Shown piece after piece: positions 1-60,194 of a DNA stretch of 64,000 nucleotides. Each line of letters begins with the position of its first letter. Within the stretch, counting starts at the first letter, position 1. The stretch lies in assembly GCF_001677475.2 (NCBI RefSeq), contig NZ_CP015229.1; one strand, 5' to 3'. Made by a program: the position numbers and the translations under genes. Source of the DNA: Escherichia coli. Its GTDB lineage: Bacteria > Pseudomonadota > Gammaproteobacteria > Enterobacterales > Enterobacteriaceae. The notes beneath the pieces were generated by a model that made no database searches, was not told the DNA's origin, and saw nothing but the letters and a program-made list of their open reading frames with translations.

Positions 1-1
1 C

Positions 2-469
2 ACGCTGACGGTTTCTAACCTGTACGGTATGGTCACCGGGATGGCGGAAGATCTGCAGAGTCTGGTCGGCGGAACGGTGGTCCGGCGTAAGGTTTACGCC
101 CGTTTTCTGGATGCGGTGAACTTCGTCAACGGAAACAGTGACGCCGATCCGGAGCAGGAGGTGATCAGCCGCTGGCGCATTGAGCAGTGCAGCGAACTGA
201 GCGCGGTGAGTGCCTCTTTTGTACTGTCCACGCCGACGGAAACGGACGGCGCTGTTTTTCCGGGACGTATCATGCTGGCCAACACCTGCACCTGGACCTA
301 TCGCGGCGATGAGTGCGGTTATCACGGTCCGGCGGTCGCGGATGAATATGACCAGCCAACGTCCGATATCACGAAGGATAAATGCAGCAAATGCCTGAGC
401 GGTTGTAAGTACCGCAATAACGTCGGCAACTTTGGCGGCTTCCTTTCCATTAACAAACTTTCGCAGTAA
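2..469 (+). CDS. L: Lambda-like minor tail protein L, C-terminal part (N-terminus lies upstream of the window)
   Basis: Frame open from base 2; translation (TLTVSNLYGMVTGMAED...FLSINKLSQ) matches the phage lambda L C-terminus as recalled; followed by K, I, J in lambda order. Confidence 0.8.
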   Translation, partial: TLTVSNLYGMVTGMAEDLQSLVGGTVVRRKVYARFLDAVNFVNGNSDADPEQEVISRWRIEQCSELSAVSASFVLSTPTETDGAVFPGRIMLANTCTWTYRGDECGYHGPAVADEYDQPTSDITKDKCSKCLSGCKYRNNVGNFGGFLSINKLSQ

Positions 470-542
470 ATCCCATGTATTAGACGTCAACTAGTTTTGC
501 CGACTCGCGCCAACTATACTGGCCGCACCCTTCAGGGCGACA

Positions 543-1298
543 TCAAGTCGCGCTTGTTACTGCCTTCGCTGTCTTTTTCCTGTAGCTTTCCCCTTTCAGT
601 TCGAACATATATCCGTGATGGAGCAGCCTGTCTGCCGCAGCCACCGCCATAGTCTCATCCACGAAGATGCTGCCCCACATGCTGAACGGATGGTTACTGG
701 TTATCACCAGGCTCCCACGTTCATAGCGATGCGCTATTAACTCGAACAGCACACCCGTTTCGGCACTATCGCGTTTGACATAGCCAAGATCATCCACCAC
801 TATCACCCGGTAGCGATCCAGTTTCAGTAGCAGCTCATTCAGTTTCAACTGAGCTCTGGCTTTACGTAGTTCCTGCAACAGCTCTCCTGCGCTGTAGAAC
901 CGGGCCCGGTAGCCCTGACCTACTACGCCATCCACGATCGCTGCCGCCAGATGGCTTTTCCCCAACCCGCTGGCTCCGAACAGCAGAACGTTTTCTCCTG
1001 CATCAACCCAGTCTGTCGTTTCACAGAGTTGCCGGAACTGAGCTCCATTCAGTTCCGGCACCTGACTGAAGTCGTATTCGCTCAGCGTTTTGGCAACTGG
1101 CAACCGGGCCTCCTTTTTATAACGACGCAGTTTTTCACTCTCGCGCCACAGGAGTTCTTCATTGCATAGCGTCAGAAGATAGCGCGATGGTGTCCAGCCT
1201 TCTGCCAGCGCTCGTTTTTCCAGAGCGTGCCATTCAGCTCCAACTCGTGTCAGGCGTAGTTTACGCAGGCTATGTTCAAGGTGATGGATATTGCTCAC
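543..1298 (-). CDS. istB: IS21-family transposition helper ATPase IstB
   Basis: 251 aa ORF with Walker A motif GASGLGKSH and typical IstB length; start overlaps istA stop. Confidence 0.9.
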   Translation of the reverse strand: MSNIHHLEHSLRKLRLTRVGAEWHALEKRALAEGWTPSRYLLTLCNEELLWRESEKLRRYKKEARLPVAKTLSEYDFSQVPELNGAQFRQLCETTDWVDAGENVLLFGASGLGKSHLAAAIVDGVVGQGYRARFYSAGELLQELRKARAQLKLNELLLKLDRYRVIVVDDLGYVKRDSAETGVLFELIAHRYERGSLVITSNHPFSMWGSIFVDETMAVAAADRLLHHGYMFELKGESYRKKTAKAVTSAT

Positions 1299-2794
1299 TG
1301 CGAACCTCCCTTGCCACGCAGTAGTTGCTCATAACTGCTCAGGTTATGCTGTATCACATTGACTACCGGCAACGCCTTTTCTTTTATACCCAGGAAGCGC
1401 ATCAGCCGGTGCAGATCCACGTTTCCCGGGGTATTCAGCATCTGCTCCATACCTTTTGCCACGACTGAGATATCGTCGTATCCTGCAGCCAGTTTCAGGG
1501 CATGTACCATCAGCCTTCCTGCCATATCGGGCTCCAGATGATTACATAAGCGACGCCACAGCCTCCGCCATTCATCGTCCGGCAGGATGTCATTTCTCAG
1601 CGTTGCATGGCAGAACGCACCGGGCTTTTTTGCCAGACTGTCGATCACATGTCGGAAGTCGATACGACGGGCCCGCGTCTTCCCTTTTTCTGGTCTGACG
1701 CGAGGGCAGCTCATGACCTCGCTGCTGCCAACGTAACAGCTCAGACGATCGTCCCATAACCTGACCCGTAACAGTTGACCTACAAGCCGGGAAGGTACGC
1801 TGTAGACGACGTGCTTCACATTGATGGTACTGCTGCGACTAACCCTCACAGTCAGCTCATCATAGTCAGCACTGCGACGAAGCGGCAGCGGTTTCAGATG
1901 AAGACGTTCTTCCTTGACCAGATCCTGATTGTTACGGTTGTGCCGCATAACCTGCTGAGTGATGAAGGCCTGATATTCTTCTATGGTGCTGAAGTCGTTA
2001 CTGCCCCGCAGTATCAGCGCCTGACAGATACGCCTTTTCAGATGTCCGTGGGCACTTTCAACCGAGCCATTTTCGTGGCCCCGACCGGCATTATTGTGTA
2101 CGCCCTGCATTCCGTAGTGCTGACAGAGAGTAGCATAACGCTCAGTCAGCTCGCGGCGTCCATCTTCGCCCTGTTGTTTCCATGCTGCCCTCAGGCTGTC
2201 CGTTTTATGTTCTACCGGCACTCCGCCCAGTTGTCCGAGGGCTTCCTGCAGGCCTTCAGCCAGAGCAGAGAAGCTCTCACCACCCAGAACAACCCGCATC
2301 CAGCTCCAGTGGCTCCATTCCAGACGGAAGTGATACAACTTATGCGCCAACAACTTACCGGCGATGGTGACAACTACACCTTTCAGTTCAGTAAAGTCCG
2401 ACAGGCCTCGCAGGCCGGGCTGATGTTGCTGGCGGAACATGACCTCCTGCTCTGTACCATACTGTAGTTTCCATTCGCGAACCCGCCGTTGCATTGTTCT
2501 TCGAAGGCTGTTGGGGTACTGGCCGGGATATTTATCCTGTAGCATCTCCAGTAGAGTTGTTGGTGTCAGAGCCGGCCTCTCTTTCAACAGAGGAACAAGC
2601 ATGCTGTCCCACACAGCTTCCAGAGGATCTTTGCGTGTGCGCCAGTGCCGAACACTGTTTTTTGCCCACTCTCCTTTTTCGATCCGACGACCAGAACGGA
2701 CTGAGATACCAGCCTTCATGGCCGAGATATGCTGAGTTATACCTTTCTTACGCTGAGTCATATAGTAACTGACCTGAGAAGTATTGAGCGTCAC
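1295..2794 (-). CDS. istA: IS21-family transposase IstA
   Basis: 499 aa ORF immediately upstream of and coupled to istB; N-terminal HTH-like region and integrase-like core; family assignment by architecture. Confidence 0.85.
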   Translation of the reverse strand: MTLNTSQVSYYMTQRKKGITQHISAMKAGISVRSGRRIEKGEWAKNSVRHWRTRKDPLEAVWDSMLVPLLKERPALTPTTLLEMLQDKYPGQYPNSLRRTMQRRVREWKLQYGTEQEVMFRQQHQPGLRGLSDFTELKGVVVTIAGKLLAHKLYHFRLEWSHWSWMRVVLGGESFSALAEGLQEALGQLGGVPVEHKTDSLRAAWKQQGEDGRRELTERYATLCQHYGMQGVHNNAGRGHENGSVESAHGHLKRRICQALILRGSNDFSTIEEYQAFITQQVMRHNRNNQDLVKEERLHLKPLPLRRSADYDELTVRVSRSSTINVKHVVYSVPSRLVGQLLRVRLWDDRLSCYVGSSEVMSCPRVRPEKGKTRARRIDFRHVIDSLAKKPGAFCHATLRNDILPDDEWRRLWRRLCNHLEPDMAGRLMVHALKLAAGYDDISVVAKGMEQMLNTPGNVDLHRLMRFLGIKEKALPVVNVIQHNLSSYEQLLRGKGGSQ

Positions 2795-2890
2795 GCCATT
2801 TCCTGTTGGATCATGTAAATGACACTCAGGTTACAAAACCGGCCAGAATAATCGGCGCCAGGCGGACTGAGTTATTGTCGTCTCATACCC

Positions 2891-3634
2891 ATGACACAGA
2901 CTGAATCAGCGATTCTGGCGCACGCCCGGCGGTGTTCGCCTGCGGAATCGTGCGGCTTCGTGGTGAGAACGCCGGAGGGAGACAGGTATCTTCCCTGCGT
3001 GAATATCTCCGGTGAGCCGGAGGCGTATTTCCGGATGTCGCCGGAGGACTGGCTGCGGGCAGAAATGCAGGGTGAGATTGTGGCGCTGGTCCACAGCCAC
3101 CCCGGTGGACTGCCCTGGCTGAGTGAGGCCGACAGGCGGCTGCAGGTGCAGAGTGATTTGCCGTGGTGGCTGGTCTGCCGGGGGGCGATTCACAAGTTCC
3201 GCTGTGTGCCACATCTTACCGGGCGACGCTTTGAGTACGGGGTGACGGACTGTTACACGCTGTTCCGGGATGCTTACCATCTGGCGGGGATTGAGATGCC
3301 GGATTTTCATCGCGGGGATGACTGGTGGCGTAACGGCCAGAATCTCTATCTGGATAATCTGGAGGCCACAGGGCTGTATCAGGTGCCGTTGTCATCAGCA
3401 CAACCGGGCGATGTGCTGCTGTGCTGTTTTGGTTCATCGGTGCCGAATCATGCCGCCATTTACTGCGGCGACGGCGAGCTGCTGCACCATATTCCTGAAC
3501 AACTGAGCAAACGAGAGAGGTATACCGACAAATGGCAGCGACGCACACACTCCCTCTGGCGTCACCGGGCATGGCACGCATCTGCCTTTACGGGGATTTA
3601 CAACGATTTGGCCGCCGCATCGACCTTCGTGTGA
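2891..3634 (+). CDS. K: Lambda-like tail assembly protein K (JAB/MPN metalloprotease-like plus NlpC/P60-like domains)
   Basis: 247 aa ORF; JAMM motif HSHx7Sx2D (HSHPGGLPWLSEAD); C-terminus matches lambda K as recalled; overlaps I by about 100 nt as in lambda; alternative internal start at 3035 corresponds to the classical 199-aa lambda K. Confidence 0.85.
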   Translation: MTQTESAILAHARRCSPAESCGFVVRTPEGDRYLPCVNISGEPEAYFRMSPEDWLRAEMQGEIVALVHSHPGGLPWLSEADRRLQVQSDLPWWLVCRGAIHKFRCVPHLTGRRFEYGVTDCYTLFRDAYHLAGIEMPDFHRGDDWWRNGQNLYLDNLEATGLYQVPLSSAQPGDVLLCCFGSSVPNHAAIYCGDGELLHHIPEQLSKRERYTDKWQRRTHSLWRHRAWHASAFTGIYNDLAAASTFV

Positions 3635-4203
3635 AAACGGGGGCCGAAGCCATCCGGGCGCTGGTCATGCAGATCCCGGCGTTTCGTCAGAAACTGAGCG
3701 ACGGCTGGTATCAGGTACGGATTGCCGGGCGGGACGTCAGCACGTCCGGGTTAACGGCGCAGTTACATGAGACTCTGCCTGATGGCGCTGTGATTCATAT
3801 TGTTCCCAGAGTCGCCGGGGCCAAGTCAGGTGGCGTATTCCAGATTGTCCTGGGGGCTGCCGCCATTGCCGGATCATTCTTTACTGCCGGAGCCACCCTT
3901 GCAGCATGGGGGGCAGCCATTGGGGCCGGTGGTATGACCGGTATCCTGTTTTCTCTCGGTGCCAGTATGGTACTTGGTGGTGTGGCGCAGATGCTGGCAC
4001 CGAAAGCCAGAACTCCCCGTACACAGACAACGGATAACGGTAAGCAGAACACCTATTTCTCCTCACTGGATAACATGGTTGCCCAGGGCAATGTTCTGCC
4101 TGTTCTGTACGGTGAAATGCGCGTGGGGTCGCGGGTGGCTTCTCAGGAGATCAGCACGGCAGACGAGGGGGACGGTGGTCAGGTTGTGGTGATTGGTCGC
4201 TGA
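3532..4203 (+). CDS. I: Lambda-like tail assembly protein I
   Basis: 223 aa ORF, same length and position as lambda I; Gly/Ala-rich hydrophobic C-terminal half. Confidence 0.85.
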   Translation: MAATHTLPLASPGMARICLYGDLQRFGRRIDLRVKTGAEAIRALVMQIPAFRQKLSDGWYQVRIAGRDVSTSGLTAQLHETLPDGAVIHIVPRVAGAKSGGVFQIVLGAAAIAGSFFTAGATLAAWGAAIGAGGMTGILFSLGASMVLGGVAQMLAPKARTPRTQTTDNGKQNTYFSSLDNMVAQGNVLPVLYGEMRVGSRVASQEISTADEGDGGQVVVIGR

Positions 4204-4221
4204 TGCAAAATGTTTTATGTG

Positions 4222-4249
4222 AAACCGCCTGCGGGCGGTTTTGTCGTTT
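4222..4249 (+). terminator. Terminator-like hairpin between tail genes I and J
   Basis: Perfect 8-bp stem AAACCGCC/GGCGGTTT with 4-nt loop, followed by a T-rich run. Confidence 0.4.
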
Positions 4250-4263
4250 ATGGAGCGTGAGGA

Positions 4264-7200
4264 ATGGGTAAAGGCAGCAGTAAGGGGCATACCCCGCGCG
4301 AAGCGAAGGATAACCTGAAGTCCACGCAGTTGCTGAGTGTGATCGATGCCATCAGCGAAGGGCCGGTTGAAGGTCCGGTGGATGGATTAAAAAGCGTGCT
4401 GCTGAACAGTACGCCGGTGCTGGACAGTGAGGGGAATACCAATATCTCCGGTGTCACGGTGGTGTTCCGTGCAGGTGAGCAGGAGCAGACACCGCCGGAG
4501 GGATTTGAATCCTCCGGCTCCGAGACGGTGCTGGGTACGGAAGTGAAGTACGACACGCCGATTACCCGGACCATCACGTCTGCAAACATCGACCGTCTGC
4601 GCTTTACCTTCGGTGTGCAGGCACTGGTGGAAACCACCTCAAAGGGGGACCGGAATCCGTCGGAAGTCCGCCTGCTGGTTCAGATACAACGTAACGGTGG
4701 CTGGGTGACGGAAAAAGACATCACCATTAAGGGAAAAACCACCTCACAGTATCTGGCCTCGGTGGTGGTGGGTAACCTGCCGCCGCGCCCGTTCAGTATC
4801 CGGATGCGCAGGATGACGCCGGACAGCACTACAGACCAGCTGCAGAACAAAACGCTCTGGTCGTCATACACCGAAATCATCGATGTGAAACAGGGCTACC
4901 CGAACACGGCACTGGTCGGTGTACAGGTGGACTCGGAGCAGTTCGGCAGCCAGCAGGTGAGTCGTAATTATCATCTTCGCGGGCGCATTCTGCAGGTGCC
5001 GTCGAACTATAACCCGCAGACGCGGCAATACAGCAGTATCTGGGACGGAACGTTTAAACCGGCATACAGCAACAACATGGCCTGGTGTCTGTGGGATATG
5101 CTGACCCATCCGCGCTACGGCATGGGGAAACGTCTTGGTGCGGCGGATGTGGATAAATGGGCGCTGTATGTCATCGGCCAGTACTGCGACCAGTCAGTGC
5201 CGGACGGCTTTGGCGGCACGGAGCCGCGCATCACCTGTAATGCTTACCTGACAACACAGCGTAAGGCGTGGGATGTGCTCAGTGATTTCTGCTCGGCGAT
5301 GCGCTGTATGCCGGTATGGAACGGGCAGACGCTGACGTTCGTGCAGGACCGGCCGTCGGATAAGGTGTGGACCTATAACCGCAGTAATGTGGTGATGCCG
5401 GATGACGGCGCGCCGTTCCGCTACAGCTTCAGCGCCCTGAAGGACCGCCATAATGCCGTTGAGGTGAACTGGATTGACCCGGACAACGGCTGGGAGACGG
5501 CAACAGAGCTTGTGGAGGACACGCAGGCCATTGCCCGTTACGGTCGTAACGTCACGAAGATGGATGCCTTTGGCTGTACCAGCCGGGGGCAGGCGCACCG
5601 CGCCGGGCTGTGGCTGATTAAAACGGAACTGCTGGAAACGCAGACCGTGGACTTCAGCGTGGGTGCCGAAGGGCTTCGCCATGTGCCGGGCGATATCATT
5701 GAAATCTGCGATGATGACTATGCGGGTATCAGCATCGGTGGTCGCGTGCTGGCGGTGAACAGCCAGACCCGGACGCTGACGCTCGACCGTGAAATCACGC
5801 TGCCATCCTCCGGCACCACTCTGATAAGCCTGGTTGACGGAAATGGCAATCCGGTCAGCGTGGAGGTTCAGTCCGTCACCGACGGCATGAAGGTGAAAGT
5901 GAGCCGTGTTCCTGACGGCGTTGCAGAATACAGCGTGTGGGGGCTGAAGCTGCCGACGCTGCGCCAGCGCCTGTTCCGCTGCGTGAGTATCCGTGAGAAC
6001 GACGACGGCACGTATGCCATCACTGCCGTGCAGCATGTACCGGAAAAAGAAGCCATCGTGGATAACGGGGCGCACTTTGACGGCGACCAGAGCGGCACGG
6101 TGAATGGTGTCACGCCGCCAGCGGTGCAGCACCTTACCGCCGAAGTCACCGCAGACAGCGGGGAGTATCAGGTACTGGCCCGCTGGGACACGCCGAAGGT
6201 GGTGAAGGGCGTGAGCTTCATGCTTCGCCTGACCGTGGCAGCGGACGACGGCAGTGAGCGGCTGGTCAGCACAGCCCGGACGACGGAAACCACATACCGC
6301 TTCAGACAACTGGCGCTGGGGCGTTATATGCTGACGGTCCGGGCGGTAAATGCCCGGGGGCAGCAGGGTGATCCGGCGTCGGTATCGTTCCGGATTGCGG
6401 CACCGGTAGCGCCTGTCACTATTGAACTGATACCGGGGTATTTTCAGATAACGGCGGTCCCGAAACTGGCTGTATATGACCCGACGGTACAGTTTGAGTT
6501 CTGGTTATCGGAAAAGCGGATTATCGATATCAGGCAGGTTGAAACCACAGCCCGCTATCTTGGTACGGCGCTGTACTGGATAGCCTCCGGACCGGATATT
6601 GAGCCGGGCAATAATTATTATTTTTACGTTCGCAGTGTGAATACCGTCGGCAAATCGGCATTTGTGGAGGCTGTTGGCCAGCCGGGTAACGATGCTGAGA
6701 AATATCTCCATTTTTTTGAAGGGAAAATAAACAGCACCCTGCTGGGGCAGGAGCTGAACGATCGTATTAATGCCTCGGCATTGCGCAGTGAAGTTGAGCA
6801 ACTGGAGGATGAGATCAATCAGCAGATAGAGAGTGATATTGCTGAAGTGACCCAAAAAATCGGGGAGACAGAAAACAGCCTCACGCAGCTGGTTGCGAAA
6901 AAAAATGATGAGCTGTCACTGGGTATATCACAGGTGAGCCAGAGAGTGGATAACGTCAGCAGCGAACTCACGCAGACGGTCAGTCAGAGTAATGAGGAGA
7001 ATGCACGCCAGATAGCGCAGGTTCGCCAGTATGTGGATCAAAAAAGCAGTGAAATCATGACGACAACGGACCAGAAGCTGGGAGATCAGGAGGCCACCAT
7101 CCAGCAGATACAAAAGGTTCAGACGGACACCAGTAATAACCTGAACAGTATGTGGGCCGTGAAACTGCAGCAGATGCAGGATGGTCGCCTTTATATTGCG

Positions 7201-7965
7201 GGTATCGGTGCCGGTATTGAGAACACCCCCGACGGCATGCAGAGTCAGGTGCTGCTGGCGGCAGACAGGATTGCGATGATTAATCCTGCAAATGGCAACA
7301 CAAAACCGATGTTTGTTGGTCAGGGTGATCAGATATTCATGAATGAAGTGTTCCTGAAATATCTGACGGCTCCCACCATTACCAGCGGCGGTAATCCTCC
7401 TGCATTTTCCCTGACACCGGACGGAAAGCTGACCGCTAAAAATGCCGATATCAGCGGTAACGTGAATGCGAACTCCGGGACGCTCAACAACGTCACGATA
7501 AATGAGAACTGTCAGATTAAGGGGAAACTGTCAGCCAACCAGATTGAAGGCGATATTGTCAAAACGGTCAGCAAGTCTTTCCCCCGCACGAACAGTTATG
7601 CCAGTGGCACCATCACGGTAAGAATCAGTGATGATCAGAAATTTGACCGGCAGGTCATGATACCGCCAGTGTTGTTCCGTGGTGGTAAGCATGAGAATTT
7701 CAACAGTAATAACCAACAGTCATACTGGTATTCAACCTGCCGGTTAAGAGTGACCCGCAATGGTCAGGAGATTTTTAATCAGTCCACGACGGATGCTCAG
7801 GGCGTATTTTCCTCAGTTATAGATATGCCTGCCGGACAGGGGGCGCTGACACTGACATTCACCGTATCTTCATCAGGAGCGAATAACTGGACACCAACAA
7901 CCAGTATCAGCGATCTGCTGGTTGTGGTGATGAAGAAATCCACAGCAGGTATCAGTATCAGCTGA
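4264..7965 (+). CDS. J: Lambda-like tail tip / host specificity protein J (1233 aa) with divergent C-terminal receptor-binding region
   Basis: N-terminal about 800 aa match lambda J as recalled ([21 protein letters not shown]...); C-terminal third diverges and is longer. Confidence 0.9.
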
Positions 7966-7982
7966 ATTTTATAACCCATAAC

Positions 7983-8008
7983 GGGCGTCAGAAATGACGC
8001 CTTTTTTA
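7983..8008 (+). terminator. Rho-independent terminator after J
   Basis: Stem GGCGTCA/TGACGCC with GAAA loop followed by TTTTTT. Confidence 0.6.
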
Positions 8009-8031
8009 TTGCAGAAAAGCGAGAGGTAATT

Positions 8032-8631
8032 ATGCGTAAACTTTATGCCGCCATTTTGTCCGCAGCCATTTGTCTGGCCTTATCCGGTGCGCCTGCATGG
8101 GCGTCTGAACATCAGTCCACGCTGAGCGCGGGGTATCTTCATGTCTCGACGAACGTTCCCGGCAGCGATGATCTGAACGGGATTAACGTGAAATACCGTT
8201 ATGAGTTTACGGACACACTGGGTATGGTGACGTCATTCAGCTATGCAGGAGACAAGAATCGCCAGCTGACCCGTTACAGCGATACCCGCTGGCATGAAGA
8301 TTCCGTTCGTAACCGCTGGTTCAGCGTAATGGCGGGGCCGTCTGTGCGCGTGAATGAATGGTTCAGCGCGTATGCGATGGCGGGTGTGGCTTACAGCCGT
8401 GTGTCGACTTTCTCCGGGGATTATCTCCGCGTAACTGACAATAAGGGGAAAACGCACGATGTGCTGACCGGAAGTGATGACGGTCGCCACAGCAACACGT
8501 CTCTGGCGTGGGGAGCTGGCGTGCAGTTTAACCCGACCGAATCCGTGGCTATTGATATTGCTTATGAAGGCTCCGGCAGTGGCGACTGGCGCACTGACGG
8601 TTTCATCGTGGGTGTCGGTTATAAGTTCTGA
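8032..8631 (+). CDS. lom: Lom-like outer membrane protein (Ail/Lom/PagC family)
   Basis: 199 aa ORF with signal peptide (MRKLYAAILSAAICLALSGAPAWA) and terminal aromatic residue (YKF); lambda lom position downstream of J. Confidence 0.85.
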   Translation: MRKLYAAILSAAICLALSGAPAWASEHQSTLSAGYLHVSTNVPGSDDLNGINVKYRYEFTDTLGMVTSFSYAGDKNRQLTRYSDTRWHEDSVRNRWFSVMAGPSVRVNEWFSAYAMAGVAYSRVSTFSGDYLRVTDNKGKTHDVLTGSDDGRHSNTSLAWGAGVQFNPTESVAIDIAYEGSGSGDWRTDGFIVGVGYKF

Positions 8632-8657
8632 TTAGCCAGGTAACACAGTGTTATGAC

Positions 8658-8686
8658 AGCCCGCCGGGTTCAGGCGGGCTTTTTTG
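8658..8686 (+). terminator. Rho-independent terminator after lom
   Basis: Stem AGCCCGCC/GGCGGGCT followed by TTTTT. Confidence 0.65.
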
Positions 8687-8696
8687 TGGGGTGAAT

Positions 8697-10787
8697 ATGG
8701 CAGTAAAGATTTCAGGTGTCCTGAAGGACGGAGCGGGTGAGCCTGTCGTAAACTGTGCGATTGAATTGCGAGCCAGAAGAACCAGTCCGACAGTTGTGGT
8801 TAATATTGTGGCAACCTGTCTTACGGGAAGTGATGGCGGGTATACTATTAATGCTGAGCCGGGATTTTATGATGTATTTTTGTCCCGCTCAGGGCATCCT
8901 CCTGTAAAGGCGGGGGAAATTTATGTTGCACCGACAGATGAGCCGGATACGCTGAATGCTTTTCTGGATGCACCAAAGGAGGGTGATTTACGCCCTGAGG
9001 TAATGAAGCGTTTTGAGGAAATGGTAAATACCGTTGTTCGCTTGTCTGAGCAGGTGGTCAGTGACAGGGAGAGAGCAGAAACAGCTGCTGATGATGCAAT
9101 CAATGCAGCAACATCTGCGGCGGTTAGTAAGGATGAGGCAGAAGAGCTAAAAAATCAGACACAGCAGAGCGCCGAAGCTGCAGCCGGAAACGCACAGCAG
9201 ACGGCACAGGATGTGACGACAACCGCAACGGCCCGTGATGATGCGGAACGTTTTGCGGGTGAGGCAGAAAACAGCGCACAGTCATCAGGCACAGCGCGGG
9301 ACGAATCAGTCGATGCCGCCGAACGCGCCCGCCTTTATCATAATGCCGCATCATCAGCAGCGACCAGTTCAGAACTGTCGGCAAATGCGGCGCTGGGGCA
9401 CAAAAACAGTGCCGCCGAATACGCCCGACAGGCTAAAGCCAGCCAGGATGCAGGTGCAGACAATGCGCAGGAAGCGAAACAGTACAGGGATGAGGCGCAG
9501 CAGATAGTTGATGACCTGAATGCAACAAATGCCTCCACGACAGAAAAAGGTCTGGTGCAACTCTGTAGTGATACGGACAACGACAGCGAGGAACTGGCTG
9601 CCACGCCAAAGGCTGTCAAAGACGTCATGGACGAGGCGAAAACAAAAGCGCCACTGGACAGTCCGGCCTTCACCGGCACCCCAACCACCCCAACCCCACC
9701 GGATGATGCCGCCGGTCTGGAAGCAGCGAACGCAGCGTTTGTGCGCAAACTGCTTGCTGCGCTGGTTGGCTCATCGCCGGAAGTTCTGGACACCCTGAAC
9801 GAGCTGGCAGCGGCGCTGGGCAATGACCCGAACTTTGCGACGACAATCACAAACGCGCTGGCAGGCAAACAACCGCTTAATGACGTCTTAACGGCAATCA
9901 GCGCACTGACGCAACGGGCAGATAATCTTCTGTACTTCAATACAGACGGGAATGCCTCACTGTCTCTGCTGTCAGAGAAGGGCCGCGCATTACTGGCGCA
10001 TGACACGGCTGAAGCCATGCGCACGGAGCTTGAGCTGAACGCGGCTGCGACGATGGAACCCCAGAGTGATATCCGTGACCGCACACCGGGCAGGCTGGCC
10101 CTGTCCGGGATGTATGGGTTTGGACAGGCATTCACCAGCACTGACGCTCTGGCGTTTGAGGGGCTGTCTGATTTCGTTGAGTGGTTGAAGAAAGTCACGC
10201 CGGGGCGGTATGCGGTCAGTATTACAGACTCCTCGCAACTGCTTACCGGTACCACGCAATTTAACGGCATTATTGATGTGATGTGGTCACCGTACGCCAA
10301 CAGTGAATCCGACACAGTCCGCAAATTTAAAACCCTGATGTGCTACAACCAGTATTATCAGGGTGAACACTGTATTCACTATATGCAGTACCGGTACAAC
10401 GACAGCGATAACAGCTGGAACATGTCATCGCGGGTAGTTGTATACGACGGAGATTCACTGGCGTACCTGCTGTCCAGGATGGCGGGCTCAGGCTCATATT
10501 ATAAATACCCGGCCGTTGGTGTGCCGATTATGGCGGCATATCAGGGGGAGAGTTTTGGTGCAGATGCGTCTCTGGGGCTCGGTGATATTGTGCCGGGTTC
10601 CCGTCTTGGCCCTCTGGCTATGAGTGCACGGGTTAGCGATACAGGGACATACGCATCCTCACCGCAGGTTGTGATTGGCGGTGCTGGTGAATACAACTTC
10701 CCCGGTCGTTACACGGCGCTTTCGGGGACCCGCATTAGTCACGATACAACGCGTGGCTATATCGGTCTTTTTGTACGCATTGAGTAA
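8697..10787 (+). CDS. stf: Prophage side tail fibre protein (Stf-like)
   Basis: About 696 aa ORF (ATG at 8697; the ORF track starts at GTG 8691); Ala/Gln/Glu-rich fibrous central region; followed by tfa. Confidence 0.8.
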   Translation: MAVKISGVLKDGAGEPVVNCAIELRARRTSPTVVVNIVATCLTGSDGGYTINAEPGFYDVFLSRSGHPPVKAGEIYVAPTDEPDTLNAFLDAPKEGDLRPEVMKRFEEMVNTVVRLSEQVVSDRERAETAADDAINAATSAAVSKDEAEELKNQTQQSAEAAAGNAQQTAQDVTTTATARDDAERFAGEAENSAQSSGTARDESVDAAERARLYHNAASSAATSSELSANAALGHKNSAAEYARQAKASQDAGADNAQEAKQYRDEAQQIVDDLNATNASTTEKGLVQLCSDTDNDSEELAATPKAVKDVMDEAKTKAPLDSPAFTGTPTTPTPPDDAAGLEAANAAFVRKLLAALVGSSPEVLDTLNELAAALGNDPNFATTITNALAGKQPLNDVLTAISALTQRADNLLYFNTDGNASLSLLSEKGRALLAHDTAEAMRTELELNAAATMEPQSDIRDRTPGRLALSGMYGFGQAFTSTDALAFEGLSDFVEWLKKVTPGRYAVSITDSSQLLTGTTQFNGIIDVMWSPYANSESDTVRKFKTLMCYNQYYQGEHCIHYMQYRYNDSDNSWNMSSRVVVYDGDSLAYLLSRMAGSGSYYKYPAVGVPIMAAYQGESFGADASLGLGDIVPGSRLGPLAMSARVSDTGTYASSPQVVIGGAGEYNFPGRYTALSGTRISHDTTRGYIGLFVRIE

Positions 10788-10801
10788 TAAGGAAATAAGA
10801 C

Positions 10802-11380
10802 ATGAAAATCAGAGCGGTGAAAGGCATCAGAAACGCGCATTATCTTGAAAATGGTGCGGTTGACTGCGAGGTGTTATTTGAAGGTGAAACGGAGTTCGTC
10901 CTGTATACCGCCATACAGGATGATATGGCCCCGACAGGCCAGCATGTCTGGCAGGAGCTGCAAAGCGGGAAATGGGGCGAAATCGCCCCGTTCACCGTCA
11001 CGCCGGAACTTATTGCAGCGGCAAAGGATGCCAAAAGGCGGGAAATTGAGGCATGGCGCGACAGTCAGGAAAACGTTGAGTTTATTTTCACGTTTGATGG
11101 CCGTCGTTTTGATGGCGGAAAAACCTCGCAGTCACGCCTTGCCCCCGTGGTTGCAACAGCACAGGCCGGACTGCTTCCGGAGGGATTTTTCTGGACTGAT
11201 GCGGATAATAATAACGTCGTACTGACCAGGGAGAAACTTATTGCGCTGAACGATGCCATGATGGTGGCCATGGTGGCGGAGGGCTTTAAAATCCACGAAC
11301 GTCAGCGGGAGATGAAAGAGGAACTGAGCAGCCTGGAGGATTTACGCTCAATCAGAGCGATGGCGATTAGCAGTAATTAG
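10802..11380 (+). CDS. tfa: Tail fibre assembly protein (Tfa-like chaperone)
   Basis: 192 aa ORF immediately downstream of stf; Tfa-like length and position. Confidence 0.8.
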   Translation: MKIRAVKGIRNAHYLENGAVDCEVLFEGETEFVLYTAIQDDMAPTGQHVWQELQSGKWGEIAPFTVTPELIAAAKDAKRREIEAWRDSQENVEFIFTFDGRRFDGGKTSQSRLAPVVATAQAGLLPEGFFWTDADNNNVVLTREKLIALNDAMMVAMVAEGFKIHERQREMKEELSSLEDLRSIRAMAISSN

Positions 11381-12414: not shown

Positions 12415-13548
12415 TTAGAACTGATAAACCAGACCTAAAGCGACAATATCATCGGTAGAGATGCCGTTGGCAGCGTAGAAGCTGTCATCTTCATCCAACA
12501 GGTTGATTTTATAGTCAACATAGGTGGACATGTTTTTATTGAAATAGTAAGTCGCGCCAACATCGGCGTATTTAACCAGATCTTTATCATCAACACCTGC
12601 CGGGTTGTCTGCACCACCGGCAGCGTGCAGGTCACGGCCTTTAGACATCAGGAAAGAGACTGCCGGACGCAGACCAAAATCAAACTGGTACTGTGCAGTA
12701 ACTTCAAAGTTCTGGGTTTTGTTTGCAACAGCATAATCGCTGTCGCCAAACGGGGTCATATTACGCGTTTCTGAATACATGGTTGCCAGGTAAATATTGT
12801 TAGCATCGTATTTTAGCCCAGCAGTCCACGCGTCTGCTTTATCACCACCCGCCGCAGTATGGTTAACCTGGTCATTGGTGCGGTCAGAAGAGGTGTATGC
12901 CGCACCAGCGCTAAAGCCCATGCCTAAATCATATGTTGTGGAAAGACCCCAGCCGTCACCGTTTTCATGGCGAACATCACGTCCGTTGTTGGTGCCTTCC
13001 TGACCATTACTGGCACCTTCGTTGTTACCTTGATACTGCACCGCGAAGTTCAGACCATTTACCAGACCGAAGAAATCAGTATTACGATAAGTCGCGACGC
13101 CATTGGCACGACCAGTCATAAAGTTGTCTGCATTGGTATAAGAGTCACCGCCAAATTCAGGCAGCATATCGGTCCAGCCTTCGATGTCGTACATTACGCC
13201 ATAATTACGTCCGTAATCGAAAGAACCGTAATCTGCAAATTTCAATCCGGCAAATGCCAGACGGGTCCATGACTGGTTTTTTGAGGATTCAGTGTTGTTT
13301 GCCTGAATATTGTATTCCCATTGACCGTAGCCAGTGAGTTGATCGTTAATTTGGGTTTCGCCTTTAAAACCCAGACGCGCATAGCTCTGGTCGCCATCTT
13401 TCGCTGAATTATCAGAAAAATAATGCAGGCCATCAACTTTGCCATACAGATCTAATTTGTTGCCGTCTTTATTATAAACTTCGGCTGCATGTGCAGCACC
13501 TGCGGCGAGCAGGGCAGGAATTAAAAGTGCCAGTACTTTGCTTTTCAT
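12415..13548 (-). CDS. ompN: Outer membrane porin OmpN (OmpC/OmpF family)
   Basis: 377 aa porin with signal peptide and C-terminal ...LVYQF; located between uspF and micC/ydbK as in K-12. Confidence 0.85.
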
Positions 13549-13775
13549 TGAATAAATCCTTTAGTTATTTTATTTGCCTTTTATCCCCATTTCGGGGAGT
13601 GAAAACATCCTAAAGGAGAAGTTCAGTTAGCCGATAAATATCATTTGTTACGCCTTAAGTAAAACCTTAATCAAATAATTCCTCTGAAATGACAATAAGT
13701 CTTGTGAATGTATCGAAGATAATACATACAAAATAAAAATTATACTTTTAATTTGCTATACGTTATTCTGCGCGG

Positions 13776-13884
13776 GTTATATGCCTTTATTGTCACAGAT
13801 TTTATTTTCTGTTGGGCCATTGCATTGCCACTGATTTTCCAACATATAAAAAGACAAGCCCGAACAGTCGTCCGGGCTTTTTTT
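13776..13884 (+). ncRNA. micC: MicC small regulatory RNA (Hfq-dependent, represses ompC)
   Basis: Sequence GTTATATGCCTTTATTGTCACAGATTTTATTTTCTGTTGGGCC...CCCGAACAGTCGTCCGGGCTTTTTTT matches recalled MicC including the terminator hairpin; ompN-ydbK intergenic position. Confidence 0.9.
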
Positions 13885-13913
13885 TAGAATTGGATAATCC
13901 TTATCCAGAGCAT

Positions 13914-16900
13914 TTAATCGGTGTTGCTTTTTTCCGCTTTTCCGGCCATTTGTGCCAGGAAGTCATAGCGTTTTTGCAAATCAGCTGCGGCATCTTTCCA
14001 TAACTGTTCTGCCACTTCTGGCTGCTGCGAATTCAGACGACGGAAACGCTGCTCGTGAAGTAACGTTTCTTCCAGTGCTTCTGACGGCGGGCGTGAATCC
14101 AGCGCCAGCGGCAGTTTGCCTTCATCGGCACGACGCGGATCAAAGCGATATAGCGGCCAGAAGCCGGTAGCAGTGAGTTGGCGCATCTGGTCGTGACTGA
14201 GTGCCAGATCGTAACCATGCTCTTCACACGGGCTATAAGCGATGATCAGCGATGGCCCCGGATACGCTTCCGCTTCCTGAATCGCTTTCACCGTCTGGTT
14301 GAGCTGCGCGCCGAGAGAAATCTGCGCCACATAAACATGACCGTACATCATCATACTGACGCCAAGATCTTTACGCGCTTTACGTTTGCCGTGCTCGCCG
14401 AACTTAGTTACTGCACCCAGCGGTGTCGCTTTCGACGCCTGACCACCGGTGTTGGAATAGCATTGCGTATCCAGCACCAGAATGTTGATGTTTTCCGTCA
14501 AACTCAATACATGATCCAGACCGCCAAAGCCGATATCGTAAGCCCAGCCATCACCACCAATCAGCCAGATTGATTTTTCCACCAGTGCATCTGCGTCACG
14601 TAGCAGTTCATGTGCTTCGGCAACATCGTTGAGTTGCTGGCGTAAAGCTGCAACCTGCTCACGACGAACCTCTGGCGTAGCGTCTGATTTCAACGCCGTC
14701 AGTAATTCCGTCGGGATTTTATCGGCAAATTGATCCAGCAGACGAAGCACGCGGACACGGTGTTGATCGACCGTCAGGCGGAAACCAAGGCCAAATTCGG
14801 CGTTATCTTCAAACAGCGAGTTCGCCCATGCCGGCCCACGACCGTTGGCATCGGTGGTATACGGTGTAGAGGGCAGGTTACCGCCATAAATTGAAGAACA
14901 GCCGGTGGCGTTAGCGATCAACATCCGGTCGCCATAGAGCTGAGTCAGCAATTTAATATACGGCGTCTCGCCACAACCGGAGCAAGCACCTGAATATTCA
15001 AACAGCGGTGTAATCAGCTGCGATGTACGAATATCAATACGTTCCAGTTTGCTACGGTCGATTTCTGGCAGGTTGAGGAAGAAATCGTAATTGATTTTCT
15101 CTTCTTCGACATGTTCCAGGCGCGACATCATATTGATGGCTTTAATCTCTGGATTCTGACGGTCTTTCGCCGGGCAAACTTCGACGCACAGGTTACAACC
15201 GGTGCAATCTTCCGGAGCCACCTGCAAGACATATTTCTGCCCGCGCATATCACGCGATTTCACATCCAGCGAATGCAGGCTGGCAGGGGCGTTTTCCATC
15301 GCTTCAGGCGGTACCACTTTTGCGCGAATAGCTGAGTGTGGGCAAGCGGCGACGCAGTGGTTACATTGGGTACAGAGTTCCTCTTTCCAGATGGGGATCT
15401 CTTCGGCGATATTGCGTTTTTCCCAGCGCGTGGTGCCCATCGGCCAGGTGCCGTCTGGCGGCAGCGCCGAAACGGGGAGGGCATCACCAAGCCCGGCGAG
15501 CATCGCAGCGGTTACGGTTTTCACGAAATCAGGGGCGGCATCGGAAACCACTGGCGGTCGATTGGCGCTGTGCGGATTTACCGGTTGCAACGGAACTTCT
15601 TCTACGGATTCACGCGCCAGCGCCAGAGCCTGCCAGTTGCGCTCCACCAGATCCTGACCTTTGCTACTGTAACTTTTGGCAATCGCACCCTGCAATTCTG
15701 CGAGGGCGCTATCGCCAGGCAGAATTTGCGTCAGATGGAAAAAAGCCATCTGCATGACGGTATTAATACGGGCCGCCAGGCCACATTCGCGGGCGATTTT
15801 CGCTGCGTTAATCACATAGAAGCGCGCTTTTTTCTGGTTTAGCACGGCCTGAACTTCCTGCGGCAAGCGCGACCACACTTCATCTGCGCTGTACGGCGTG
15901 TTGAGCAGGAAAATGCCGCCAGGTTTTAAACGCTCAGCCATCTGATATTTATCGATAAACTGCAACTGGTGGCAGCCAACAAAATCAGCCTGGGAAATGA
16001 GATAAGCGGAACGAATCGGCTGTTCGCTCACGCGAAGGTGAGAAACCGTCAGGCCGCCCGCCTTTTTGGAGTCGTAAACAAAATAGCCCTGTGCGTACCA
16101 CGGCGTGGAATTACCGATAATCTTGATATTGTTTTTGGTCGCGGAAACGCTGCCATCACTACCAAGGCCATAAAACAAGGCTTCCAGTTTCGCCGAGTTT
16201 GGCAGGGTGTTTTCCGGCAACGGCAGTGACAGATTGGTCACATCATCGTAAATACCAACCGTAAAGCGCGCTTTCGGTTTAGCCGCGTTGAGCTCGGCAA
16301 ATACCGCCAGTACACAGTCCGGGCCAAATTCTTTGGATGAAAGACCATAGCGCCCACCAATGACACGGGGCAGGATTTCACGCTCGCCATTATTAAAAGC
16401 TTCTGCCAGTGCGGTCATCACATCCAGATAGAGCGGTTCTGCCTGGGCACCAGGTTCTTTGGTTCTGTCCAGTACCGCCACGCTGCGTACGGATCCCGGC
16501 AGAGCTTGTAGCAAGTGTTTGGCGGAGAAGGGACGGTACAGGCGAACTTTCAGCACGCCAACTTTTTCGCCACGGGTTAGCAATTCATCAACCACTTCTT
16601 CACAGGTGCCAATGGCAGAGCCCATCAGGATAATCACCCGTTCCGCTTGCGGATGCCCGTAATATTCAAACGGCTGATACTGACGACCTGTCGCGGCAGA
16701 GAAATCATTCATCGCCTGTTCAACATGGTCATAGACCGCGTTGTACCATGGGTTGGTGGCTTCGCGAGACTGGAAATAAGTGTCAGGATTGGCGGACGTA
16801 CCGCGGATCACCGGATGTTCCGGGTTGAGTGCCCGGGCGCGATGAGCATCAATTTCGGCCTGCGGCATGAGATCAAGAATCGTGTCATCGGCCAGCGGGA

Positions 16901-17438
16901 CAATTTTATTGATTTCGTGGGACGTGCGGAAACCATCAAAGAAATGAATAAATGGCACGCGGCTTTTCAGCGTCGCGATGTGCGAAATGAGAGCAAAGTC
17001 TTGCGCTTCCTGGACGTTTGCTGCACACAACATCGCGCAACCCGTCTGGCGCACCGCCATGACGTCGGAATGATCGCCAAAAATAGAGAGTGCATGTGTG
17101 GCAACGGTACGTGCCGCTACATGCAGGACAAACGGTGTGAGTTCGCCTGCCAGTTTGTACAGCGTCGGGATCATCAGCAGCAAACCCTGCGATGACGTAA
17201 ACGATGTTGAAAGAGCACCCGTCTGCAAAGCGCCATGCACGGTAGCGATAGCACCCGCTTCCGACTGCATTTCAACCACGCGTGGTGTGTCTCCCCAAAC
17301 GTTCTTCAAGCCGTTTCCGGCCCAGGCATCAGCCTGTTCTGCCATCGTGGAACTGGGGGTAATAGGGTAGATGGCGATAACTTCACTGGTGCGAAACGCC
17401 ACCGAAGCAACCGCGCCATTACCGTCAATAGTAATCAT
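13914..17438 (-). CDS. ydbK: Pyruvate:flavodoxin/ferredoxin oxidoreductase
   Basis: 1174 aa; TPP-binding and two 4Fe-4S ferredoxin motifs (CTQCNHCVAACP, CTGCNLCVEVCP). Confidence 0.95.
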   Translation of the reverse strand: MITIDGNGAVASVAFRTSEVIAIYPITPSSTMAEQADAWAGNGLKNVWGDTPRVVEMQSEAGAIATVHGALQTGALSTSFTSSQGLLLMIPTLYKLAGELTPFVLHVAARTVATHALSIFGDHSDVMAVRQTGCAMLCAANVQEAQDFALISHIATLKSRVPFIHFFDGFRTSHEINKIVPLADDTILDLMPQAEIDAHRARALNPEHPVIRGTSANPDTYFQSREATNPWYNAVYDHVEQAMNDFSAATGRQYQPFEYYGHPQAERVIILMGSAIGTCEEVVDELLTRGEKVGVLKVRLYRPFSAKHLLQALPGSVRSVAVLDRTKEPGAQAEPLYLDVMTALAEAFNNGEREILPRVIGGRYGLSSKEFGPDCVLAVFAELNAAKPKARFTVGIYDDVTNLSLPLPENTLPNSAKLEALFYGLGSDGSVSATKNNIKIIGNSTPWYAQGYFVYDSKKAGGLTVSHLRVSEQPIRSAYLISQADFVGCHQLQFIDKYQMAERLKPGGIFLLNTPYSADEVWSRLPQEVQAVLNQKKARFYVINAAKIARECGLAARINTVMQMAFFHLTQILPGDSALAELQGAIAKSYSSKGQDLVERNWQALALARESVEEVPLQPVNPHSANRPPVVSDAAPDFVKTVTAAMLAGLGDALPVSALPPDGTWPMGTTRWEKRNIAEEIPIWKEELCTQCNHCVAACPHSAIRAKVVPPEAMENAPASLHSLDVKSRDMRGQKYVLQVAPEDCTGCNLCVEVCPAKDRQNPEIKAINMMSRLEHVEEEKINYDFFLNLPEIDRSKLERIDIRTSQLITPLFEYSGACSGCGETPYIKLLTQLYGDRMLIANATGCSSIYGGNLPSTPYTTDANGRGPAWANSLFEDNAEFGLGFRLTVDQHRVRVLRLLDQFADKIPTELLTALKSDATPEVRREQVAALRQQLNDVAEAHELLRDADALVEKSIWLIGGDGWAYDIGFGGLDHVLSLTENINILVLDTQCYSNTGGQASKATPLGAVTKFGEHGKRKARKDLGVSMMMYGHVYVAQISLGAQLNQTVKAIQEAEAYPGPSLIIAYSPCEEHGYDLALSHDQMRQLTATGFWPLYRFDPRRADEGKLPLALDSRPPSEALEETLLHEQRFRRLNSQQPEVAEQLWKDAAADLQKRYDFLAQMAGKAEKSNTD

Positions 17439-59157: not shown

Positions 59158-59401
59158 AGGATATTTAAAGAAAACGCCTGTACTAAAACCGACCCGTGGT
59201 ACAGGCGAAGAATACGGGCCTACATCGGAAGCGCCTATTATATTTATTTGTATGACAAATAAAACCATAATCCTTGTCCATACGTCCATCTGGCTTATCT
59301 TTAATCAATTCACCCGATCTTTGATCTCATCAACGGTATCAAAATAAACCAGCGTATAACGTTAAAATCAAACATAAGATTCGATAAATCATGGAGGTTA
59401 T

Positions 59402-59646: not shown

Positions 59647-59839
<193 letters not shown>

Positions 59840-59854
<15 letters not shown>

Positions 59855-59905
59855 TCGTTGGCCTCGGTTGATAGAAATATCGGTCGGGGCCTTCGTCTTT
59901 CTGAT
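59840..59905 (+). ncRNA. sokB: Putative SokB antisense RNA (coordinates approximate)
   Basis: Expected antisense partner opposite the mokB start/leader; placement by analogy to hok/sok, not by sequence match. Confidence 0.3.
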
Positions 59906-60194
59906 TCCCGGTTAGCCTGAAAACAGAAAGTCTCAGGCACCCGTGAGCATCCTATGTGGTTTCCTTAGGGACGAAAATAATCACCTGACGAAATTGCGTG
60001 CTGTTTTCCAGAATTTTTCGTTATTCGGTTTAGCCAGTTTAATCATTCGTTACTCTCTTCATTCCAATGGCATTAATCTTCTCTGCAATAATTGTTGTAA
60101 AAATGTGACGCAAAGAGGTTTTTGGTCGTAAGTAATTACCGTCAAGTGCCGATGACTTTCTATCAGGAGTAAACCTGGAAGAGAGACAACGGTA

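Follow-up and report, generated by a model that had tools for sequence, protein, structure and literature searches.

The micC small RNA gene between ompN and ydbK in an Escherichia coli genome

The ompN–ydbK region and its small RNA gene

We analysed a 64,000-nt stretch of an Escherichia coli genome; this whole stretch is referred to below as the window. The part of the window considered here contains the following features:

12415–13548, − strand: ompN, encoding a quiescent porin, the divergent neighbour of micC; 377 aa, 99.7% identical to K-12 OmpN
13549–13775, no strand assigned: the ompN–micC divergent control region, 227 nt, equal to the SD3/SD4 primer fragment of PMC5745476
13776–13885, + strand: micC, the gene for the MicC sRNA, 110 nt here; assigned by Rfam RF00121, by identity to K-12 b4427 and by a custom covariance model
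13914–17438, − strand: ydbK/nifJ, encoding pyruvate:flavodoxin/ferredoxin oxidoreductase, the convergent neighbour of micC; TIGR02176 with 1630 bits, 99.5% identical to K-12 YdbK

The OmpN ORF scores within the OmpC-type porin subfamily, and matching genomes annotate the gene as ompN. A spacer of 227 nt (13549–13775) separates the ompN start codon from MicC +1, and 28 nt lie between the last U of micC (13885) and the ydbK stop codon (13914–13916); the original prediction, made from the sequence before the present analysis, had put the latter distance, from the U-run to the stop codon, at about 30 nt. It had also described micC as convergent with ydbK and divergent from ompN, in agreement with the ORF coordinates as well as with the K-12 annotation.

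The claim that this interval encodes the MicC sRNA had been tied beforehand to one check, a match of the Rfam covariance model. We scanned the entire window, on both strands, with all 4227 Rfam families at gathering thresholds, and three matches were returned. The claim stood: the MicC family (RF00121) matched window positions 13773–13893 (+) with 125.3 bits, versus a gathering score of 90, and an E-value of 2e-19. The alignment covers model positions 1–123 of 123 with no truncation, i.e. the interval holds a full-length member of the family. With a custom covariance model, trained on the homologous loci described below, the micC of the window scored 113 bits.

The gene, which reads GTTATATGCCTTTATTGTCACAGATTTTATTTTCTGTTGGGCCATTGCATTGCCACTGATTTTCCAACATATAAAAAGACAAGCCCGAACAGTCGTCCGGGCTTTTTTTT (13776–13885), is the same in its body as micC of K-12 MG1655 (b4427), save for the tail with 8 T in the window and 9 T in K-12. 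In the K-12 genome micC occupies positions 1437121–1437231 (+), between ompN (b1377, −) and ydbK (b1378, −); its start and the first base of the ompN start codon are 228 nt apart, and it maps to window positions 13776–13885/6. When the spacers between ompN and ydbK were aligned, the window and K-12 showed 99% identity. MicC has a length of 110 nt in the window; the K-12 annotation gives 111 nt, and the published length is 109 nt. The interval first predicted, 13776–13884 (109 nt), was right at the 5′ end and left out just the last U of the run, at 13885, a difference of no importance. A 17-nt core of the seed has one exact occurrence in the window, with a chance expectation of 0.15 if up to 3 mismatches are allowed.

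It had further been stated that the ORF track gives no hint of the gene. This is true in the sense that micC itself is absent from the ORF list; still, the six-frame list has two ORFs across the interval, which are considered below. RefSeq/PGAP annotation, which spans thousands of E. coli genomes, had no feature named micC in the records listed, the gene being annotated only in the K-12 reference record. The locus is an ordinary, already known feature; what it illustrates is that a known sRNA is recognisable from raw sequence with a base-accurate 5′ coordinate, in a place where the ORF track alone misses it.

Elsewhere in the window, the Rfam scan matched the sok antitoxin (RF01794) at 59791–59942 (−) with 109.7 bits versus a gathering score of 59; this is presumably the hokB/sokB type I toxin–antitoxin locus. 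The RydC sRNA (RF00505) was matched at full length at 59168–59231 (−), with 90.5 bits versus a gathering score of 48, at a distance of 45.4 kb from micC. In K-12 we take micC and RydC to be about 54 kb apart; if so, the window would differ from K-12 by an indel somewhere between the two. The best E. coli matches to window positions 1–25000 cover only ∼77% of this part at ∼97.5% identity, and among the features listed for them upstream of ompN are tail genes of a prophage (gpJ/host specificity protein J, tail fibre). This indicates that positions from about 1 to 11000 carry a lambdoid, Rac-like prophage, the content of which is matched by no complete E. coli genome; our impression, which we treat as an assumption, is that it occupies the Rac site of K-12.

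Seed pairing, RNA structure and homologues

Within the RNA we distinguish the following parts:

13776–13797, + strand: 5′ seed or antisense region, GUUAUAUGCCUUUAUUGUCACA; supported by complementarity of nt 1–16 to the ompC leader and by duplex energy
13798–13812, + strand: U-rich single-stranded linker, GAUUUUAUUUUCUGU; unpaired in the Rfam consensus, U-richness kept in homologues
13814–13848, + strand: middle stem-loop, GUUGGG ... UCCAAC; Rfam consensus structure and pair counts
13856–13885, + strand: Rho-independent terminator of micC, with the stem AAGCCCGAAC / GUCCGGGCUU containing one A·C mismatch, the loop AGUC and 8 U (13878–13885)

Nucleotides 1–16 of MicC form an uninterrupted Watson–Crick run with positions −30 to −15 of the ompC mRNA; the target site, AATAAAGGCATATAAC, abuts the Shine–Dalgarno sequence AGAGGG on its upstream side. 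The energy of the duplex between MicC nt 1–30 and the ompC leader is −26.5 kcal/mol, versus −13.5 ± 2.5 kcal/mol for shuffled sequences, and none of 1000 shuffles reached it. A comparison of the 5′ seed with the ompC leader had been proposed together with the original prediction, and its outcome, a 16-nt perfect run at an energy outside the range of shuffles, favours the MicC assignment. The pairing was tested on the ompC leader of K-12; the ompC gene of the window's own strain lies outside the window. Of the 5370 complete E. coli genomes that match this leader (−90 to +10), 5359 have it with an identity of at least 99%, and the strain almost certainly carries the target site.

A full-length duplexfold run of MicC against the ompC leader gave −59.8 kcal/mol for a meaningless end-to-end duplex, and the seed analysis was used instead. 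In a search for other partners of the seed in the window, the best non-self sites had −22.3 and −20.9 kcal/mol, values inside the shuffle range (minimum −23.7 kcal/mol, from the control run against the ompC leader, which is a different target).

To collect homologues, we have taken one genome per bacterial or archaeal species (GTDB) and made an exact scan with an 18-nt core of the seed, which returned 48 loci. There were 30 enterobacterial orthologues, found in Escherichia species, Salmonella enterica subsp. arizonae and diarizonae, many Citrobacter, Superficieibacter, Pseudocitrobacter and some MAGs. All 30 start with GTT (GUU in the RNA), a triplet outside the search pattern, and all 30 end about 100–113 nt later with GCCCGAA, a loop and TTCGGGC, followed by 7–10 T. 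Another 17 seed matches, in Bacteroides, Bacillus, archaea and others, have neither the GTT start nor the terminator. With the custom covariance model these chance matches scored at most 25.5 bits, versus 80–121 bits for the true loci; since the true loci were the training set of the model, it is only the contrast that is informative. Nucleotides 1–21 of MicC are invariant in 31 sequences, an invariance partly imposed by the search, as 18 of these nucleotides made up its pattern.

Wherever the retrieved locus reaches far enough, the orthologues are convergent with ydbK/nifJ, with the stop codon a few tens of nucleotides past the U-run. In most of the orthologous loci an ompN-like porin gene is divergent from micC. 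At the two Salmonella enterica loci (subsp. arizonae and diarizonae), tblastn detected no ompN-like porin within ∼3–4 kb on the side of micC away from ydbK; thus, the divergent porin partner of micC is not universal.

The fold of the RNA was assessed by counting base pairs in alignments. In a MAFFT alignment the middle hairpin and the terminator together were paired in 93.3% of cells, versus 28–52% when the pairing partners were slid by 1–3 columns (27–52% over the two alignments used). For the middle helix, which is 83.8% paired in this alignment, four of the six pairs had changed on both sides, to be read with the reservation that the covariation shuffle control ignores the relatedness of the sequences. 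An alignment fitted to the model, which leans to the structure by construction, gave 95.0% paired cells overall, with 88.1% and five of six pairs changed for the middle helix and 99.0% for the terminator. RNAalifold run on the MAFFT alignment recovered the terminator alone; the middle hairpin was named explicitly and then counted. Folded as a single sequence, MicC was not significantly more stable than its shuffles (z = −1.75), a value that fits an RNA in which the first ∼37 nt are meant to be unpaired and that is common for sRNAs with long unpaired regions.

The terminator is almost invariant, with 99% of cells paired over 30 distinct sequences. The hairpin and U-run that the original prediction had placed at the end of MicC are both present, as seen from the Rfam structure alignment and the tail of 8 U. 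On the + strand the stem reads GUCCGGGC and includes the A·C mismatch, versus GUUCGGGC in all other genera; the hairpin has −12.4 kcal/mol as it stands and −16.9 kcal/mol if the mismatch is repaired to GUUCGGGC. The C at position 13872 is shared by the window, K-12, EC42405, SJC33 and Escherichia sp. MOD1-EC7003, and the other aligned species have T. All that is expected of an Hfq-dependent sRNA can be seen in the sequence: a seed left unpaired at the 5′ end, a linker rich in U and a terminator that runs into a U-tail. The linker (13798–13812) is a candidate for an internal Hfq-binding stretch.

Control region, mode of action and alternative readings

The 227-nt spacer, as well as a 184-nt part of it (window positions 13592–13775), was earlier fused to lacZ in two orientations by Dam et al. 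2017 (PMC5745476). Both the micC-lacZ and the ompN-lacZ fusions were active, and they were co-induced by beta-lactams and by sigma-E depletion; a mutation in hns de-repressed the micC and ompN fusions about 11-fold and 6-fold, respectively, and no sigma-E core motif was present in the spacer (PMC5745476). The prediction that the promoter of micC lies in the region 13549–13775, shared with ompN, agrees with these fusions. Since a sigma-70 consensus scan of positions 13400–14100 found no promoter on the + strand, we inferred the promoter elements from conservation only, in an alignment of the 90 nt before +1 (24 sequences, five genera):

13704–13710, + strand: conserved GTGAATG, at about −72; upstream alignment
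13730–13745, + strand: nearly invariant block AAAATAAAAATTATAC, −46 to −31; upstream alignment
13764–13769, + strand: putative −10 hexamer TATTCT, −12 to −7; cross-species conservation

Across the 24 upstream regions the −10 hexamer appears in the variants TATTCT, TATTAT, TATGAT and TAAGAT. The AAAATAAAAATTATAC block includes a −35-like TTATAC, followed by an 18-bp spacer and preceded by an A-tract. Judged by this conservation, the micC promoter would have a weak −10 and a weak −35 with an A-tract, the latter serving as a UP-like element or regulator site. Both the AAAATAAAAATTATAC block and GTGAATG are more conserved than a −35 element requires, which makes them candidate binding sites for a regulator of micC and ompN. 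Relative to K-12 the spacer has two substitutions, C for T at 13693 and T for G at 13703; the two together occur in none of the 5426 complete E. coli genomes, the best match having one mismatch. Since both sites are variable among species, with neither falling within a conserved block, the substitutions are probably neutral.

Taken together, the features suggest the following course of events. The micC gene would be transcribed from a promoter in the 227-nt spacer common to the divergent ompN, and transcription would end at the Rho-independent terminator 28 nt short of the ydbK/nifJ stop codon. The single-stranded 5′ end of the RNA would then pair with the ompC leader just upstream of the Shine–Dalgarno sequence, and this pairing would block binding of the 30S subunit and reduce synthesis of the OmpC porin. 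Transcription, Hfq dependence, the 30S block, co-regulation with ompN and repression by H-NS are taken here from the literature. With reference to Chen et al. 2004 and Zhang et al. 2003, PMC5745476 describes MicC as an Hfq-associated sRNA of 109 nt that forms a 22-bp duplex with the ompC 5′ UTR and inhibits 30S binding (Chen et al. 2004). A 2026 preprint (bioRxiv 10.64898/2026.07.27.741068) also gives repression of OmpC by MicC, along with OmpC-independent effects of MicC in ExPEC and a role in the fitness of ExPEC in the host. MicC bears upon porin balance and antibiotic permeability, matters established or studied elsewhere, to which the window adds nothing new.

The closest known system is MicC of K-12 itself (b4427; RF00121; formerly IS063; Chen et al. 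2004), which has the same 5′ end, the same neighbours and spacings (227 nt and 28 nt) and the same complementarity to ompC, and differs from the window in its 9 T tail and at spacer positions 13693 and 13703. The Salmonella gene is orthologous, with the same seed and terminator and the same convergence with ydbK/nifJ (in subsp. arizonae and diarizonae), and its hairpin sequences differ from those of E. coli by compensatory changes. Salmonella MicC has a site on ompD that is located inside the coding sequence; a passage in PMC3333887 names ompD as an additional target. A parallel is offered by MicF of the ompC-micF locus, in K-12 adjoining ompC: like MicC, it is an Hfq-dependent sRNA of ∼100 nt, divergent from one porin gene, that represses another porin by pairing of its 5′ end at the ribosome-binding region, with H-NS acting on the shared spacer (PMC5745476). 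Unlike MicC, MicF belongs to another Rfam family, has another sequence and another target (ompF), and is activated by OmpR, SoxS and MarA.

The 3′ end of micC is shared with a structure on the opposite strand:

13846–13879, − strand: the hairpin as read on the ydbK strand, with GUCUUUUUAU after it, which resembles a terminator and would serve ydbK/nifJ; pattern scan and folding

Folding of the region on this strand gave z = −3.5; with G·U replacing A·C, the hairpin has −17.6 kcal/mol there. The pattern scan of 13400–14100 found it as the only terminator-like site; it reported none on the + strand, where the micC terminator was missed because the scanning tool disallows the internal A·C mismatch. 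The hairpin shared by micC and ydbK is likely to be a bidirectional terminator.

Such an arrangement raises the question of whether MicC also acts in cis, besides its action in trans. Transcripts of ydbK that stop at the shared hairpin or run past it towards ompN would be antisense to part or all of MicC, and the two RNAs could titrate or destabilize each other, or convergent transcription could cause interference. The − strand carries ydbK, the hairpin and ompN, with the whole of micC in between on the + strand. If ydbK transcription stopped at about 13846–13850, the mRNA would overlap the last ∼35–40 nt of MicC; an RNA reading through towards ompN would be antisense to MicC over its full length. 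In the orthologous loci the short spacing between micC and the ydbK stop codon (28 nt in the window) is kept. Co-transcription in the ydbK–ompN context has reportedly been seen. On the other hand, the hairpin of the − strand looks like an efficient terminator, and convergent genes often share terminators, usually without regulatory meaning. We consider a cis action unlikely, and it would add to the repression of ompC in trans rather than replace it. One could speculate, with rather poor prospects of being right, that the shared terminator is leaky and that ydbK RNA driven by SoxS/RpoS and antisense to MicC couples the induction of ydbK/ompN in oxidative stress to a removal of MicC and thereby to the level of OmpC. 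In that event, C13872, which gives A·C on the micC strand and G·U on the ydbK strand, would tune the two directions differently.

That the interval is only a bidirectional terminator of ydbK/nifJ next to an AT-rich spacer, with no RNA gene at all, seems to us extremely improbable. It is true that, in the pattern scan, the hairpin came up for the ydbK (−) strand alone and that it is more stable there (−17.6 versus −12.4 kcal/mol); the first of these points, however, comes from the treatment of the A·C mismatch by the tool. A terminator, which makes up about a quarter of the 123-position model, leaves unexplained a full-length match of 125 bits, a 21-nt 5′ block placed after a conserved −10-like element in five genera, a covarying middle hairpin and 16 nt of perfect complementarity to the ompC leader. 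Moreover, a + strand transcript of ∼110 nt was reported for K-12 (Chen et al. 2004, as quoted in PMC5745476).

The ORFs of the six-frame list that cross the interval could be seen as a sign that a small protein is encoded instead of, or besides, the antisense RNA:

13753–13887: ORF of 44 aa with a TTG start; six-frame ORF list
13812–14003: ORF of 63 aa; six-frame ORF list

Dual-function sRNAs do exist elsewhere, SgrS/SgrT being an example, and in addition to the 44-aa ORF there is one of 17 codons in another frame, with AUG at nt 6 of the RNA. We give this reading practically no weight: the start codon of the 44-aa ORF precedes the mapped 5′ end of the RNA by 23 nt; only 5 nt, with no Shine–Dalgarno sequence, come before the AUG at nt 6; the ORF beginning there varies from 8 to >34 codons across 31 homologues, with peptides unrelated beyond MPLLS, which is the translation of the seed; and insertions and deletions in the middle part of the RNA have lengths that are not divisible by three. 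The interval thus has neither a conserved frame or peptide nor a plausible start.

We are therefore left in very little doubt that window positions 13776–13885 (+) are micC, the gene for the Hfq-dependent trans-acting sRNA MicC that represses OmpC. The identification is based on family membership, identity to K-12, geometry of the locus, complementarity between seed and target, hairpins that are conserved and covary, and a lack of coding constraint.

Variation of micC within E. coli

We found micC in 5412 of the 5426 complete E. coli genomes; identity was at least 99% in 3707 genomes, 95–99% in 1201 and 80–90% in 502. In the allele carried by these 502 or so genomes, as seen in strain SJC33 (locus L052, positions 1273–1633), the seed, the GUUGG/CCAAC stem and the terminator are kept; the middle loop is shorter and different, and the upstream spacer has diverged. 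The existence of this second allele suggests either that the two forms have long coexisted or that there has been recombination around ompN, which is variable. We also considered whether ∼500 genomes missed by megablast carry the allele of the GTDB ‘E. coli’ representative; they do not, having the SJC33-type allele instead.

Five micC matches were in records classed as plasmids; wrong assignment of the replicon or fragments of the chromosome may account for these. In strain KE55 an IS200C of ∼713 bp is inserted directly after the U-run of MicC, before the ydbK stop codon, and strain GMF065 probably carries IS200C in the same way after the U-run. Strain EM18-18-42 has lost the 5′ half of micC, together with the N-terminus of ompN, to an IS1B.
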